Positions 47,360 through 56,584 of a DNA stretch of 64,000 nt are shown piece by piece. The notes below the pieces were generated by a model. It was not told the DNA's origin. It did not search any database and saw only the letters and a list, made by a program, of their open reading frames with translations. The DNA is from an uncultured Gemmatimonadota bacterium. Its GTDB lineage: Bacteria > Blakebacterota > Blakebacteria > Blakebacterales > Blakebacteraceae. The DNA lies in contig CAZNUA010000009.1 in NCBI GenBank assembly GCA_964576115.1, positions 20,364 to 84,363 of the forward strand, written 5' to 3'. The translations under genes were made by a program, and so were the position numbers. The first letter of the stretch is position 1. Each line of letters begins with the position of its first letter.

Positions 47360-47743
47360 TCAGGTCATTGTTACATGTTCTCGGAACCAGTGTGCTATGG
47401 TGGCCAATCTCATGTGGGTGGTGGCCACCTTCAGGGTGAATGATTGCAGAACCGCATTGCTGACGGACAGGTCGTAACCGTTTATCTGCAGAAAGAGCAC
47501 CGCCGCCCCGACAGCCGTTCGCTTGTTGCCGTCGATGAAAGGATGGTTGCGGGCGATCGACTCCATCAGGGCCGCCGCATTGTCGAACAGCTCCGGGTAC
47601 AGATCTCGGCGGTTGAAAGTCAGCCATGGTCTCTCGACCGCTGCGGTGAGGGCTCCCAGATCGCGCACACCGTGACTGCCCCCGGTCTCGGCTATCAGTC
47701 GGGCATGCAGGAAGAGTACCTGGGACACTGTGAGACGTTTCAT
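47360..47743 (-). CDS. doc: Death-on-curing (Doc/Fic) family toxin
   Basis: HPFIDGNKRTA Doc-type motif; GSHGVRDLGAL; overlaps the antitoxin stop. Confidence 0.92.
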   Translation of the reverse strand: MKRLTVSQVLFLHARLIAETGGSHGVRDLGALTAAVERPWLTFNRRDLYPELFDNAAALMESIARNHPFIDGNKRTAVGAAVLFLQINGYDLSVSNAVLQSFTLKVATTHMRLATIAHWFREHVTMT

Positions 47744-47985
47744 CCCCGGTTGGCCAGTTTTTCCAGCGCCGGCCGGTACTCCTCGATGAACTCGGCAACC
47801 TGGCTGGCGAATTCACGATCGATATCGGTCGGATAGGACGGGCTGAAGGTCACCAGGATGCGGCGGCTTTCATGGTCCACTTCGACCTCGGCTTCGCTAC
47901 CTTCAGTCAGACCGAGCTGTTCCACTACGTCTCTGGGGATCGAGACGACCAGGCTGTTCCCGGCTTTGAAGACTTTACGGGGCAT
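47740..47985 (-). CDS. AbrB/MazE-family antitoxin
   Basis: RKVFKAGNSLVVSIP..LGLTEG; acidic C-terminal helix FIEEYRPALEKLA. Confidence 0.9.
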   Translation of the reverse strand: MPRKVFKAGNSLVVSIPRDVVEQLGLTEGSEAEVEVDHESRRILVTFSPSYPTDIDREFASQVAEFIEEYRPALEKLANRG

Positions 47986-48002
47986 GTGATCCCTCGCGTA
48001 TC

Positions 48003-48023
48003 TGTTATAACAGTGTTATAACA
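48003..48023. promoter_or_regulatory. Tandem palindromic operator of the toxin-antitoxin pair
   Basis: Two perfect palindromes TGTTATAACA (48003-48012, 48014-48023) 1 nt apart, containing a TATAAC -10-like hexamer. Confidence 0.7.
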
Positions 48024-48223
48024 TCATAATGGCAGCCAGACCGCGTGTCCACCCTGTTCAGATCGGGCTGTGCGATGAAGATCGGGACAGGCGGTCGGAA
48101 GAGCCCGAACCCGGCTTGTGAGCCGGCAGGGGGGAGGCGTATATTGACGGTTCCCGTCGCGGCGAACGTATCCGGGTGAGCGCGTGCGGGCGGATGCGCA
48201 GGCGCGAATTCATTCAGGCTACC

Positions 48224-48299
48224 GTATCCGAGCCAGCGCATCCGGGCGAACGCATACGAGCGACTGCATCCGAGCGACTGCATCCGAGCGAACGCATCC
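48224..48299 (+). repeat. 14-bp tandem repeat, about 5.5 copies (consensus GCATCCGAGCGAAC/CT)
   Basis: Units start at 48224, 48238, 48252, 48266, 48280 and 48294 (partial); a related unit at 48168 and an inverted core at 48191-48199. Confidence 0.9.
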
Positions 48300-48371
48300 A
48301 CACGAGATCGAGAGAGGTACCGGACGGCCGGGAGGCAGGTCCGGGACACGAGCGCGAAAGGTGATACAAAG

Positions 48372-51074: not shown

Positions 51075-51860
51075 GTGAGCAGGGTTATTGCGGTCGCGAA
51101 TCAGAAGGGCGGAGTGGGTAAGACCACCACCGCCGTCAACGTGTCGGCCTGCCTGGCCGAAGCCGGGCATACGACCTGCCTGATCGACATTGATCCCCAG
51201 GCCAACGCCACCTCGGGACTGGGGGTGGACCCCAACTCGGTCGATCTGACCATTTACGAAGCTCTGATCGAGGAAATCTCGATCGAGGACGCCTTGATCT
51301 CGACCTCGGTCAACGGGCTCGACCTCGTGCCCAGCCACATCCGCCTGACCGGGGCCGAACTCGAAATGGTGGCCATGATCGGGCGCGAGAAAAAACTCCA
51401 GCAGGCCCTGGAGCCCCTGCGCGACGCCTACGAGTTCATCCTCGTCGACTGCCCCCCCAGCCTGGGACTGCTGACCCTCAATACCCTGACCGCGGCCGAC
51501 TCGGTCATCATCCCCATCCAGTGCGAGTACTACGCCCTGGAGGGCCTCGGCAAACTGCTGAACACCATCCGCCTGGTCCAGAAGCACCTGAATCCCAACC
51601 TCGATATCGAAGGCGTTCTGCTGACCATGTTCGACAGCCGGCTCAACCTGAGCCGGCAGGTAGCCGAAGAAGCGGTCCGTTTCTTCAATGACAAGGTCTA
51701 CAAGACCCGGATCATGCGGAATGTCCGGCTCGGTGAGGCGCCCTCGTTCGGGATGCCGATCATCCAGTACGACATCCTGTCGACGGGCGCGGAGAATTAC
51801 ATCAGCCTCACCAAGGAGATCGTCGCGTATGCCCAGAAAGGCGCTCGGCAAAGGGCTTGA
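51075..51860 (+). CDS. parA: Chromosome partitioning ATPase ParA/Soj
   Basis: [45 protein letters not shown]. Confidence 0.97.
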
Positions 51861-52737
51861 CGCCCTCATCCCGGGCGCGGGCGATGAAGGGGCGTCCGCC
51901 GCCCGTTCGGAGCAGGCTCCCGGCCAGCCCGGTGAGGCGGGTACCGTCGTCAAGGTCCGCCTGAGCGAGATCACTCCCAATCCCTGGCAGCCACGACAGG
52001 ATTTCGACCGCGAGACCCTCGAGGAACTGGCCGCCTCAATCAAACAAAAGGGTATTCTGCAGCCGGTTCTGCTGCGCCGGGTCGAAGAGGGGTACGAACT
52101 GGTGGCCGGGGAGCGGCGGTTCCGGGCCGCCCGGCTCGCCGGACTGCGGACCATCCCGGCCATCGTCTACGATATCGAGAGCGCCGGAGACATGCTCGAG
52201 TTCTCGTTGATCGAGAATGTCCACCGCGAAGATCTCAATGCCATCGACACCGCCCGGGCCTATCGGCAGCTGGCCGAAGAGTGCAAGCTGACCCAGGAGC
52301 AGATCGCCGAGCGGATGGGGAAAAGCCGGGCGGCAATCGCCAACACCCTGCGTCTGCTCAATCTGCCTGACGAGGTGCAGAAGAAAGTGCGTCAGGGGGA
52401 TATGGGTGAGGGACACGCCCGGGCTCTGCTTGCCCTGACCACGAAGAAACAGCAGGTCGAGCTGGCCCGGCGGATCGTGCGGCGCGGTCTGTCGGTACGC
52501 GAGGTGGAACGTCTGGTCCGCCGGATCGTCGAGGGAGAGGACGGAGCCGGGACCAGGGCGAAGAAAATGCGCCCGCTCAGCCCGCGGCTGCAGGCCGTAC
52601 TCGAGGAAATGCAGCGGGCCCTGGGCACGAAGGTGGCGATCACGGGAACCGAAAAGAAGGGTTCGGTGAAGATCGAGTACTACTCCGCGGATGACCTGAC
52701 CCGCATCTGCGACCGGCTTGATATCATGCTGGATTGA
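51829..52737 (+). CDS. parB: Chromosome partitioning protein ParB/Spo0J
   Basis: ATG at 51829 ([12 protein letters not shown]), [40 protein letters not shown]. Confidence 0.97.
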
Positions 52738-52764
52738 TTCCCGACCCGGGAGAAGGATGACACG

Positions 52765-53586
52765 GTGGGCAGGCGACGCAGCTGGACGATAGTATTCGTA
52801 CCCGATGACGAGACGGGGCCGCGCCAGGTCACCCTCGGTCCCGGTTCGGTGCGTCTGCTCACGATCCTGGTCGTCCTGCTGATCGTGATTCTCGGGTTCG
52901 GGGTAGCCACCTACTGGCGGGTGGCCAGAGTGGCGATCGAGACGACCGCGGTCAAGGAGCAGAACCGACAGCTGCAGGCCCAGGTCGAGACGGTCTGGGA
53001 ACTCGAACGCCTGATGGCCGATCTGCTCGAGACCGATTACAAACTGCGAACCCAGCTCGGGATCGAGTTCCCCGAGGACTGGCCCGGATACAACTACCAG
53101 CTGGGACCTGAAATCGCCCCCGACACCGGTGGCGAGCGGCCGGCCGGCACCCTGCCGGAAGGGACGATCGCCGAGAGCGGCGCAGAGGAAGAGCGTGCCC
53201 TGCTCTTTGTCATGCCTGTCACACAGGGCTGGCCGAGCGCGGAGTTCGGTTCGGGCGAGGGCGCCAGCGCGGCAGCCCATACGGGTATCGACTTCGCCGC
53301 CCGGACCGGCACCCCGATCCGGGCCGCGGCGGATGGTCAGGTCGTCTTTGCCGGCATGGATGACCGCTACGGGTATCTGCTGGAAATCAGGCACTCGACA
53401 CGGCTTTCAACCCGCTACGGCCACTGCCAGAGGTTGCTGGTGCGGCAAGATCAGCTTGTCAAGAGAGGCGACATCATAGCATACGTAGGGAGCACAGGGC
53501 GGGTCACCACCGGTCCGCATCTGCACTTCGAGGTGCTCAGAAACGGTCGACCGGTGAATCCCCGCGACTACCTCCCCAGCTTCTGA
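52765..53586 (+). CDS. M23 family metalloendopeptidase with N-terminal TM and coiled coil
   Basis: HTGIDF, TRYGHC, TGPHLHFEV. Confidence 0.93.
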   Translation: MGRRRSWTIVFVPDDETGPRQVTLGPGSVRLLTILVVLLIVILGFGVATYWRVARVAIETTAVKEQNRQLQAQVETVWELERLMADLLETDYKLRTQLGIEFPEDWPGYNYQLGPEIAPDTGGERPAGTLPEGTIAESGAEEERALLFVMPVTQGWPSAEFGSGEGASAAAHTGIDFAARTGTPIRAAADGQVVFAGMDDRYGYLLEIRHSTRLSTRYGHCQRLLVRQDQLVKRGDIIAYVGSTGRVTTGPHLHFEVLRNGRPVNPRDYLPSF

Positions 53587-53596
53587 AAGGAATACT

Positions 53597-54037
53597 ATGT
53601 CGAAGATCGCTTCCGGTGACGGGACGATGAACACTCTGCTCGGCCACGGTACGGTGGTTGAAGGCACGTTCAACGTTTCGAGCAGCATGCGGGTGGACGG
53701 CAAGATCACCGGTCAGATCACCTGCTCCGACAGTCTCCTGGTGGGCAAAACCGGAGTGCTCGAAGCCAGCGTCAAGGTCAAGAACGCTACGGTCGGCGGT
53801 CGGGTCGAAGGCGATATCGTGGCGAGCGAGGTGGTCATCCTGGAGAGCAACAGCACGGTGCTGGGTGATGTGACCACCAAGAAGCTCATCATCGAAGAGG
53901 GCGCCGTCTTCAACGGGACCTGTCACATGGGCGGGGATGCTCCCAAGGGTGCCAAACCCGCGGTCCGCACCGAATCGTCCGTGGCTACACCCTCCGATGC
54001 CGCACCGGGACTGCCGCTGGAGAAGGGGGCGGACTGA
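53597..54037 (+). CDS. Bactofilin (polymer-forming cytoskeletal protein)
   Basis: TLLGHGTVVEG, RVDGKITG, VEGDI, IEEGAVFNG beta-helix repeats. Confidence 0.94.
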   Translation: MSKIASGDGTMNTLLGHGTVVEGTFNVSSSMRVDGKITGQITCSDSLLVGKTGVLEASVKVKNATVGGRVEGDIVASEVVILESNSTVLGDVTTKKLIIEEGAVFNGTCHMGGDAPKGAKPAVRTESSVATPSDAAPGLPLEKGAD

Positions 54038-54131: not shown

Positions 54132-54292
54132 TGTGGAAAAGGTACGCGGTGAAGGTCCCGGCGGGAAGGCTGCAGGGGGATGGCAGGCAGGGATGTTGAT
54201 AACTGACCCGGGACTGTGGAAAACCACCCATCTTCATATTTTACAATAGCTTGACCGGAGAACCTCAGTGATGAGTTCACGGGTTATCCACA
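54132..54292. promoter_or_regulatory. Cluster of four DnaA-box-like 9-mers around a short AT-rich tract
   Basis: TGTGGAAAA 54132-54140, TGTTGATAA 54194-54202, TGTGGAAAA 54215-54223, TTATCCACA 54284-54292. Confidence 0.65.
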
Positions 54293-55599
54293 ACCTCAAC
54301 CATGCCAGCCGGGAACGGGCTATCCTGGTCGCAGTCGACCTGGCCGACAGTGAAGGAGTCGAGGTTGAGGAATCTCTGGCCGAACTGGCTCAGCTCGCCG
54401 ATACCGCCGGAGCCGAGGTGATCGACCGCCTGGTCCAGAGCCGCGAGAAGCTCGATCCGGCCACCTATGTCGGACGAGGATTCGCCGAACGGATCGGCCG
54501 GCGGGTTCGGGCCCAGGCGGCCGACCTGGTCATCTTCGACGAGGATCTGAGCCCGGCCCAGGTGCGCAATCTGGAACGCGAGGTTGAGGTCAAGATCATC
54601 GATCGCTCCGGGCTGATCCTCGACATCTTCGCCGAACGGGCCAAAACCCGCGAGGCCAGAACCCAGGTCGAACTGGCTCAGCTCGAGTACCTGCTGCCGC
54701 GCCTGACCCGGGCCTGGAGTCACCTGTCGCGGCAGGTCGGCGGCATCGGAACCCGGGGGCCGGGGGAGACCCAGCTCGAGGTGGACCGGCGGCTGGTCCG
54801 CAACCGGATCGCCGAACTGCACAAGGATCTGGCCCGGATCGAACGCCAGCGCGACACCCAGCGGGCGGGGCGCAGCGACTTTTTTCAGATCACACTGGTG
54901 GGTTATACCAACGCCGGCAAGTCGACTCTGCTCAACCGTCTGGCCGGGGCCGAGGTCTTCACCGAGGACCGGCTCTTCGCTACCCTGGATGCCACGACCC
55001 GGTCGGTGCGCCTGCCCGAGGGACCCGACGTGCTGATAACCGACACGGTCGGTTTCATCCGCAAGCTCCCCCCCGGGCTGGTGGCCAGCTTCCGCAGCAC
55101 CCTCGAAGAGGCAGTCGTAGCCGACCTCCTGGTCCATGTCGTGGACCTGAGTCATCCCTGGTATGCAGACCACATCTCGAGCGCCAACCGGGTGCTCGAC
55201 GATCTCGATATCCTCGACCATCCCACCGTCATGACTTTCAACAAGGTCGACCTGGTTTCAGAGCGGGAGTCGGAGATCGCCCGCAATGCCTGGCCCGGAG
55301 CGCGGGTTATCAGCGCCGCGGACGGACATGGAGTCGAGGAACTCATATCGGCTCTGGTGGAGCAGGTGCGGGCCCAGCAGGTTGTCGCCGAGATCGCGGT
55401 TCCCCAGCAGCGTCAGGATCTGGTGAATATCGTCCACGAGATGGGCAGCGTGCTCGAACGGAACTATGATGAGAAAGTCGCCCGATTCACCCTGCGGACC
55501 ACCGCCGCCCGCTGCGGCCGTCTGGCCCGTCTTCTCGAGGATGTCTACGGTGCCTCCCTGACGGTGGCGGGTCGGCCGGTAGAAAGTGACCATGCCTGA
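54271..55599 (+). CDS. hflX: Ribosome-splitting GTPase HflX
   Basis: ERAILV, ILDIFAERA, GPGETQLE, GYTNAGKS, DRLFATLD, DTVGFI, NKVD. Confidence 0.96.
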   Translation: MSSRVIHNLNHASRERAILVAVDLADSEGVEVEESLAELAQLADTAGAEVIDRLVQSREKLDPATYVGRGFAERIGRRVRAQAADLVIFDEDLSPAQVRNLEREVEVKIIDRSGLILDIFAERAKTREARTQVELAQLEYLLPRLTRAWSHLSRQVGGIGTRGPGETQLEVDRRLVRNRIAELHKDLARIERQRDTQRAGRSDFFQITLVGYTNAGKSTLLNRLAGAEVFTEDRLFATLDATTRSVRLPEGPDVLITDTVGFIRKLPPGLVASFRSTLEEAVVADLLVHVVDLSHPWYADHISSANRVLDDLDILDHPTVMTFNKVDLVSERESEIARNAWPGARVISAADGHGVEELISALVEQVRAQQVVAEIAVPQQRQDLVNIVHEMGSVLERNYDEKVARFTLRTTAARCGRLARLLEDVYGASLTVAGRPVESDHA

Positions 55600-56584
55600 A
55601 CACTCGCAGACCTGGCCCCCCTGTGAACCCGGTTCGGCGCTGGAACCCTCGCAGTGGCCGTTCGTCTGCATCGGTCCGGGACGGGTGGGCAGTACTCTCT
55701 CTCGGGCGCTGATCGCACTCGGATTCCCCCCGGTCGGGATCGGCGGGATCCCCACCGCCGAGGTCGAGCGCCTGGCCGACGAACTCGGAACCGTCGTGCG
55801 GGGTGTCGCAGGACAGGGTACCGCCGGGCGGAGTGCCACAGCAGGGGAAACCCCGGCGCAGGACACCGACTGGTCCGGCTTGGGCCGCACCGCCCGGCTC
55901 ATCGTGCTCACCGTTCCCGATGACGTACTCGGCGAGGTCTCGACCCGGGTGTTGAACACCGCCGGCCTCGGCCCGGGGAACTGCGTGCTGCAGACCTCGG
56001 CCACGATTGCGGCCCGCCCCGCGGTCGAGCATGTGCCCGACGAACCGCTCTTTGTGAGCCTGCATCCCATGAAACCGATCCCGGCTCCCGATCTCGAACC
56101 GGCTCATTTCCACGGGGTTGTCTTCGGAGTCGAAGGTAATGAACCGGCCCGTGAGCTGGGATGCGCACTGGCTCACCTGCTGGGCGGGCACCCGATCGAA
56201 CTGGCGGCGGCCGACAAGCCCGCCTACCACGCCGCCGGTGTGCTGGCCTATACCGGCCTGATGGCTCTCTACGGCGCGGTCTCAGACCTGGCCCGGATCG
56301 TCGACCTGCCCGGGCAGTGGCTGCAGCAGGGAATCGTCCCGGGGTTGGTCGACACCCTGGAACAGCTTCAGGGGACCGGACTTCCGGCCGCTCTCACCGG
56401 GCCGGTCAGCCGGGGTGACTGTGGCGTGATCCTCGCTCACCTCGAAGCCCTCGAGACCCGCGTGCCCCATCTGCTGCCCCTGTACCGCGAGATCACCCGC
56501 TTCAACATCGGTGTGGCCGAGGCCGGGGGAAAAGTCGACTGCGATACCATCTGCGCTCTCCGGGACCTGCTCGAAACCTTCTGA
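55592..56584 (+). CDS. Rossmann-like plus DUF2520 domain protein (PanG-like oxidoreductase)
   Basis: IGPGRVG, LTVPDD, LHPM, YHAAGV, ALTGPVSRGD. Confidence 0.85.
   Translation: MPEHSQTWPPCEPGSALEPSQWPFVCIGPGRVGSTLSRALIALGFPPVGIGGIPTAEVERLADELGTVVRGVAGQGTAGRSATAGETPAQDTDWSGLGRTARLIVLTVPDDVLGEVSTRVLNTAGLGPGNCVLQTSATIAARPAVEHVPDEPLFVSLHPMKPIPAPDLEPAHFHGVVFGVEGNEPARELGCALAHLLGGHPIELAAADKPAYHAAGVLAYTGLMALYGAVSDLARIVDLPGQWLQQGIVPGLVDTLEQLQGTGLPAALTGPVSRGDCGVILAHLEALETRVPHLLPLYREITRFNIGVAEAGGKVDCDTICALRDLLETF

Follow-up and report, generated by a model that had tools for sequence, protein, structure and literature searches.

A rigidly spaced cluster of DnaA boxes between a parAB locus and hflX in an uncultured bacterial clade

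Why should DnaA boxes cluster between a parA-parB-M23-bactofilin gene group and hflX, in a 64-kb stretch of DNA (the window, meaning the whole of the stretch that was analysed) that contains no dnaA gene? A first-pass annotation, made from the letters of this DNA, offered three answers: an origin of replication uncoupled from dnaA, a sink for DnaA, or DnaA control of hflX. Only in a few model bacteria is much known about non-origin DnaA sites that adjust initiation or gene expression, and the locus described here presents an unusually clean phylogenetic footprint, with three boxes kept at exact spacings in 13 uncultured lineages, beside partition genes.

The box cluster and its gene neighbourhood

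The cluster in the window comprises one perfect DnaA box and three boxes with a single mismatch, all within 161 bp. Box A (54194..54202, minus strand, TTATCAACA; top strand TGTTGATAA) lies at -90 relative to box C. Box B (54215..54223, minus strand, TTTTCCACA; top strand TGTGGAAAA) has the same orientation as A, and box C (54284..54292, plus strand) is a perfect TTATCCACA, inverted with respect to A and B. Measured start to start, A and B are 21 bp apart and B and C are 69 bp apart. A fourth box (54132..54140, minus strand, TTTTCCACA) sits within a 10-nt duplicate (CTGTGGAAAA) of box B, as a direct repeat. The number of 9-mers, their positions, their mismatches and the opposite orientation of the three imperfect ones all agree with the first-pass annotation.

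The cluster is well beyond chance expectation. The whole 64-kb window has six boxes with at most one mismatch, compared with 3.15 expected from shuffles, and as two of these lie outside the cluster, four of the six fall within 161 bp. Among 20,000 mononucleotide shuffles of the 263-bp gap (61% GC), none contained three or more boxes and 0.015% contained two. When the window was joined to the 10-kb extensions of its own contig (L166 and L169), giving 83 kb of source contig, the bactofilin-hflX gap still contained the sole box cluster and box C was still the sole perfect DnaA box.

Pfam assignments gave the gene order PPDK-parA-parB-M23-bactofilin-gap-hflX-DUF2520, with a gap of 230 bp. The parA-parB-M23 peptidase-bactofilin group (51075..54037, plus strand) ends 95 bp ahead of the first box. 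The GTPase gene hflX (54268..55599, plus strand; Pfam GTP-bdg_N, GTP-bdg_M and MMR_HSR1) overlaps box C. Its called product begins at ATG 54271, and GTG 54268 aligns with the GTG starts of three relatives (L172, L174 and L175). Counted from ATG 54271, box C spans codons 5–8, so the perfect box does lie within the first codons of hflX, as had been claimed. A DUF2520/Rossmann-like gene (55592..56584, plus strand; Pfam) overlaps the end of hflX and probably shares one operon with it; other Gemmatimonadota loci, which lack the boxes, also have hflX paired with DUF2520. A motif scan together with Pfam found no dnaA, dnaN, gidA or rnpA in the 64-kb window, and no dnaA was called in the 10-kb extensions on both sides of it. 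The two observations from which the first-pass annotation started, a parA-parB-M23-bactofilin group ahead of the boxes and no dnaA in the window, were thus both borne out.

The 60-bp B-C spacer (54224..54283) contains, in order, an AT tract (54230-54252), TACAAT, GGAG and the start of hflX (GTG 54268/ATG 54271). The AT tract, which the earlier annotation had correctly placed between the boxes, has 22% GC over 23 bp, and just one other tract in the window, at 47999, is as AT-rich. The -10-like TACAAT (54242-54247) is located 19 bp after a TGGAAA inside box B, and GGAG (54257-54260), a Shine-Dalgarno-like motif, lies 7 nt ahead of the GTG start.

Conservation of the triad in thirteen lineages

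We compared the orthologous gap in 13 lineages (the window, L001, L175, L172, L174, L002 (= L086), L087, L003 (= L088), L089, L178, L179, L177 and L176), which belong to an uncultured FCB-superphylum clade with HflX identities of 63–100% and loci of 54–70% GC. The HflX homologues of this clade form a distinct group at 63–100% identity, after which identity drops to 59% or less. The DNA is metagenomic, and contigs of 97 kb (JGI) and 94 kb (ENA) encode an identical HflX product. The nearest genomes are MAGs labelled Gemmatimonadota, with one labelled Zixibacteria, and an S8 peptidase with a Por-secretion tail nearby is consistent with the FCB superphylum. The 13-way alignment was anchored on box C and required one gap, in L176.

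The triad A-B-C was present in 13/13 lineages, always in the same orientation. Box A (TGTGGATAA-type) was found at the same position in every lineage as TGT(G/T)GATAA, with 8/9 columns invariant. Box B was found at -69 in 13/13 as (T/G)GT(G/T)GA(A/T/C)A(A/G), a core of GT.GA.A being kept, and box C was a perfect TTATCCACA in 12/13 (TTGTCCACA in L176). The A-B spacing was invariant at 21 bp (13/13), and the B-C spacing was 69 bp (68 bp in L176). The 12-bp A-B spacer had no conserved column among the 13 lineages, and the sequence upstream of A and downstream of C showed no conservation in the 13-way alignment. The B-C spacer was fixed in length (60 bp, or 59 in L176; n = 13), and its GC content of 37–55%, against 54–70% for the loci, was always 14–23 percentage points below that of its own locus, the highest value (55%) being that of L177. 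Few of its positions were conserved, and some were semi-conserved, such as a GGTTCA just upstream of box C.

Around this constant core the number of boxes varies. Relatives carry 3–6 DnaA boxes at the gap; in L177 and L178, whose genomes are 62–69% GC, a stretch of 100 bp contains three perfect TTATCCACA boxes. Many lineages have extra weaker boxes, oriented as A and B, at -100 to -102, -113 and -124 from C, a phasing of about 11 bp. The window species is without boxes at about -101, -113 and -124; in their place it has the box at 54132, which recurs in same-species contigs but whose position other lineages do not share. When the proposed check of box conservation in the bactofilin-hflX gap of relatives was carried out, the triad was therefore found in 13/13 and the fourth box was not.

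The coding context of box C differs among lineages. It lies inside the hflX frame in five (the window, L001, L172, L174 and L175), within an upstream ORF of 23–31 codons in four (L002, L087, L003 and L089), and in apparently non-coding DNA, 40–108 bp upstream of hflX, in L179, L177 and L176. The module never lies more than about 110 bp ahead of the hflX start, and in some lineages it overlaps that start. Synonymous positions over box C are invariant, including a rare GTT codon. As box C is kept whether its context is coding, upstream-ORF or non-coding, the constraint acts on the DNA and not on a protein. Taken together, the conserved boxes, the rigid helical spacing and the free A-B spacer are what the footprint of a DnaA-binding module should look like. 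The premise shared by all the answers of the first-pass annotation, that the cluster is a functional site of DnaA binding, is thus strongly supported as a prediction from sequence, with boxes and spacing kept in 13/13 lineages and the DNA between A and B not.

The short ORF that contains box C in four relatives (MSIEVIHNLL..., 23–31 codons) is located about 80 nt upstream of hflX (L002:9867-9962, L087:1439-1534, L003:9910-9981 and L089:416-499). It ends at or near the hflX ATG, with a TGATG overlap in L002 and L087, whereas in the window and L001 this peptide, joined in frame, forms the N-terminus of HflX itself. The short ORF could encode a leader peptide, or it could be what is left of a fusion or a split.

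The neighbourhood is conserved along with the boxes. The upstream parA-parB-M23-bactofilin cluster was seen in the sampled lineages wherever upstream sequence exists, and synteny of the whole region is kept across the clade, so that rearrangements cannot separate a link of the boxes with hflX from a link with parAB. The M23 peptidase and bactofilin pair (window 52765-54037) is joined to the parAB cluster throughout the clade, and we take it to recall the Csd1-CcmA cell-shape pair of Helicobacter pylori. ParA (window 51075-51860 compared with L002 and L003) is 92% identical, against just 59–75% for HflX, ParB and M23, which indicates that ParA is unusually constrained. In some lineages a further gene separates bactofilin from the boxes and encodes a small membrane protein weakly similar to ATP synthase subunit I (PF03899; AtpI-like) (L002:9338-9748, L003:9334-9738, L178:8432-8896 and L179:4847-5278). 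This gene is absent from the window, L001, L172, L174 and L175, and tblastn found no remnant of it in the window.

Outside the clade, no comparable cluster was found ahead of hflX in 2.06 Mb of hflX-flanking DNA from other phyla. The single other cluster of at least three boxes in these 2.06 Mb of hflX loci was inside a long dnaE-like ORF of an unrelated lineage (L126:8024-8107, also in L063, L123, L127 and L131; labelled Deltaproteobacteria), where three one-mismatch boxes fall within 84 bp. The ORF encodes 1176 aa, resembles DNA polymerase III alpha by eye and is 2 kb upstream of hflX; this cluster is probably a by-product of the coding sequence.

Operator, control site or origin

The reading that we favour, and to which we give about an even chance of being right, takes the triad to be a DnaA-binding module outside the origin, which would serve the hflX-DUF2520 operon as an operator placed at its 5' end. 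From the conserved arrangement we infer both that DnaA binds to the boxes and that it affects hflX transcription, with repression of hflX the likelier direction. Boxes A and B, which are separated by exactly two helical turns and often accompanied by weaker upstream boxes, would nucleate a DnaA oligomer, and the inverted high-affinity box C, 69 bp downstream, would bind DnaA facing the A/B oligomer. Between them, A/B and C would bracket the AT-richer 60 bp that contain or immediately precede the hflX translation start. Bound DnaA could then control RNA polymerase that starts in the spacer or reads through from parAB-M23-bactofilin. Occlusion is one conceivable mechanism; others are a roadblock formed at box C and a loop joining box C to the A/B array. 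The expression of hflX would thereby be tied to the cell's DnaA and replication status, and the cluster would also keep some DnaA away from the origin.

Transcription signals at the gap bear on the operator model from both sides. No terminator or stable structure was detected between bactofilin and the boxes (fold z-score of 0.17), and with no terminator after the upstream cluster, transcription entering hflX from there must cross the boxes. The boxes also bracket the 60 bp that precede the hflX start and that contain TACAAT. The promoter scan, however, found 0 sigma-70 promoters at the gap, and a weight-matrix scan across the 13 lineages found no conserved -35/-10 hexamer pair and no shared position, which weighs against an operator, as does the variable distance between box C and the hflX start (from within the ORF to 108 bp upstream) in the case of an operator for a single promoter. 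A full-text literature search on hflX and DnaA boxes turned up no regulatory link between DnaA and hflX. Control of hflX and a role as a DnaA sink are not mutually exclusive and may coexist.

The chief rival is a dedicated site for the control of DnaA activity, of the datA, DARS or DnaA-box-cluster type, with no important effect on hflX, a second reading that we regard as tentative and somewhat doubtful. On this view a particular DnaA oligomer would form on the rigid triad and either titrate DnaA or alter its nucleotide state, and the triad might act together with the products of the adjacent parAB. The boxes and their exact spacing are the sole strongly conserved features, promoter elements not being among them; the distance to the hflX start is variable; and the fixed, relatively AT-rich 60-bp B-C spacer would suit a bend or wrap. 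The cluster also adjoins parAB, and in B. subtilis DnaA-box clusters damp initiation synergistically with Spo0J/Soj (PMC3245932). Against this, the architecture fits neither datA nor DARS (PMC5742627), no IHF consensus (WATCAR-N4-TTR) was found in the six lineages tested, and the module has just 3–6 boxes. Its position exactly at the 5' end of a gene is equally expected of a transcriptional operator. A bolder proposal, which we consider unlikely, would make the triad a DnaA-control element of a new type, defined by its architecture and functionally analogous to datA or DARS, or else an unconventional origin that unwinds between facing DnaA arrays, in either case conserved in the clade and physically coupled to parAB.

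That the gap is the clade's oriC, uncoupled from dnaA, with the AT-rich 60 bp between the facing boxes as its unwinding element, seems to us very unlikely. The layout has its attractions: helically phased, co-oriented boxes are clustered with an inverted high-affinity box, and E. coli oriC likewise consists of two facing half-arrays, which the layout of the triad resembles. With four boxes of at most one mismatch in 161 bp here and three to six in relatives, the locus has the box cluster expected of an origin. It is also the sole cluster in 83 kb, is rigidly conserved, adjoins parAB, and contains a tract among the most AT-rich in the window.

Strand organisation points the other way. Genes on the plus strand make up 38/51 to the left of the site and 17/18 to its right (83 kb), with no divergence at the site, as the first-pass annotation had itself cautioned. 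As genes run through the site on the plus strand, an origin here would place parAB, PPDK and carAB head-on to the leftward fork. There is no skew inflection at 54.2 kb, and the composite of 83 kb is without a V shape. GC3 skew follows the coding strand (about -0.13 in the sense direction) and is no different in the genes just left and just right of the site. The cumulative-skew check proposed by the first-pass annotation, as applied to these 83 kb of contig, therefore went against an origin at the site. A skew minimum near 43 kb in the 1-kb cumulative profile was considered as origin evidence and rejected, as it coincides with a 5-kb block of minus-strand genes and follows gene strand.

The gene content near the site does not help the origin either, with no dnaA, dnaN or gidA nearby. 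The first-pass annotation had taken parAB as a sign of origin proximity, an argument that carries little weight at this locus: no parS (TGTTTCACGTGAAACA, up to 3 mismatches) was found in the 83 kb or in the relatives scanned (L001-L003 and L086-L089), and a search with the parS 16-mer consensus allowing up to 4 mismatches returned just one match, with 4 mismatches, which is chance-level. As there is no parS-like site, parAB gives no independent evidence of origin proximity here. Either parS is located elsewhere or its sequence has diverged in the clade.

The fine structure of the gap also disagrees with an origin. In the known unwinding module, a GC cluster, DnaA-trios and an AT-rich element lie 3' of a TTATCCACA-oriented box, as at R1 of E. 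coli (PMC8287927, PMC8235120). The AT tract here is 3' of the TGTGGATAA-oriented boxes and 5' of the TTATCCACA box, which is the opposite polarity. Under the DnaA-trio rule (a box with up to 2 mismatches, a spacer of 0–16 nt and at least 3 trios with a central A on the complementary strand; PMC8287927), there was no match in the window, L001, L174, L176 or L179, so that the earlier caveat about trios holds for the window. Matches in other lineages were scattered and modest compared with a chance rate of 0.14 per box, with no position shared by the clade; four matches after box C all came from closely related lineages. In addition, the B-C spacer of L177 is 55% GC, and in five lineages the hflX coding sequence begins within the site. 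Overall, gene orientation, skew, the absence of dnaA and parS, polarity and trios disfavour the origin that the first-pass annotation had listed among its answers.

We also considered, and rejected, the divergent intergenic region at 47986-48371 as an alternative origin, because it has no DnaA boxes and its tandem array is absent in L002. This array (48161-48299), upstream of the gene for pyruvate phosphate dikinase, has about 10 copies of a 14-bp unit (GGCGAACGCATCCG, 66% matches); all that L002 shares with the window in the orthologous region is a promoter-like TTGTGA-18 nt-TATATT pair. The window's other very AT-rich tract is also in this region, as a perfect direct repeat (48003-48023) of the palindromic unit TGTTATAACA(G). 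It is located just upstream of a minus-strand MazE/AbrB-type antitoxin and Fic/Doc pair (47360-47985) and is probably the operator of that toxin-antitoxin module.

Lastly, it is highly improbable that the conservation has nothing to do with DnaA and instead reflects the HflX N-terminal peptide or upstream ORF, an RNA leader, or a DnaA-box-like site of another protein: the peptide M-S/G-x-x-V-I-H-N does extend over box C as the HflX N-terminus or as the 23–31-codon upstream ORF, and some semi-conserved positions, such as GGTTCA, directly precede box C, but in 13 lineages the non-coding boxes A and B agree with the DnaA consensus, box C persists in L177, L179 and L176 even though the short ORF has no start codon there, and the synonymous positions are invariant. 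An RNA element was rejected, as the consensus fold of six lineages (-2.9 kcal/mol) showed no structure or covariation and Rfam, at both gathering and E-value thresholds, had no match at the gap.

Comparison with known DnaA-box systems

What the module would mean depends on which reading is right. If DnaA controls hflX, whose product is a ribosome-rescue GTPase, the recycling of ribosomes would be linked to replication status. Should the module instead control DnaA activity, it would be a new design, as its geometry is not that of datA or DARS. A new control element or an unconventional origin, if either were true, would add a deep-branching lineage, with a different geometry, to the bacteria in which elements controlling the DnaA cycle have been defined, until now chiefly E. 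coli and B. subtilis. As the boxes are canonical, the module is open to in vitro testing with any DnaA. The locus also serves as a caution that a DnaA-box cluster beside parAB is insufficient for calling an origin.

Among known systems, the basal unwinding system of oriC shares with the triad its tandem boxes beside an AT-rich segment and a short G+C-rich run (CCACCC) after box B. It differs in polarity, the AT tract here following the TGTGGATAA and not the TTATCCACA reading, and in the central-A trio run, of which no conserved instance is seen here.

Boxes I and II of the E. coli DARS sites are nearly adjacent. Like DARS1 and DARS2, the triad has three core DnaA boxes that include an inverted pair; unlike them, its inverted pair B/C is 60 bp apart, and the boxes that are 12 bp apart, A and B, are co-oriented. 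In DARS the three core boxes are closely packed, with I and II head-to-head (PMC5742627). At E. coli datA, the essential boxes (7, 2 and 3) all point in one direction and an IHF site is required (PMC5742627). The triad is like datA in being a small non-coding cluster with two to three key boxes at fixed spacing and a bendable intervening segment, and unlike it in that box C is inverted with respect to A and B and that six lineages have no IHF consensus.

The favoured reading, an operator at hflX, invites comparison with E. coli dnaA, mioC, nrdAB and asnC read-through, which are units repressed or blocked by DnaA, usually through one or two boxes. In those units the boxes overlap or follow promoters and act as an operator or a roadblock, as they would at hflX under this reading. 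The module at hflX differs in having more boxes and in its target, hflX, for which DnaA control is unreported in the full-text literature search.

The best-fitting known class is that of the DnaA-box clusters outside oriC (DBCs) of B. subtilis. These regulate neighbouring genes and damp initiation, together with Soj/Spo0J (Okumura et al. 2012, PMC3245932), and according to their authors they are without a defined shared architecture (PMC3245932). As in the DBCs, several consensus-like boxes occupy an intergenic region (here the bactofilin-hflX gap) outside oriC, at the 5' end of a gene, and the tests for oriC, trios and a switch in skew or orientation, came out negative. The DBCs interact genetically with Soj/Spo0J, which are ParA/ParB, and the cluster at hflX directly follows a parAB cluster. 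What sets the triad apart from the DBCs is its rigid geometry of two direct boxes plus one inverted box (21 and 69 bp), kept clade-wide. We would place the module among the non-origin DnaA-box clusters already known, where the rigidity and strong conservation of its architecture are unusual.
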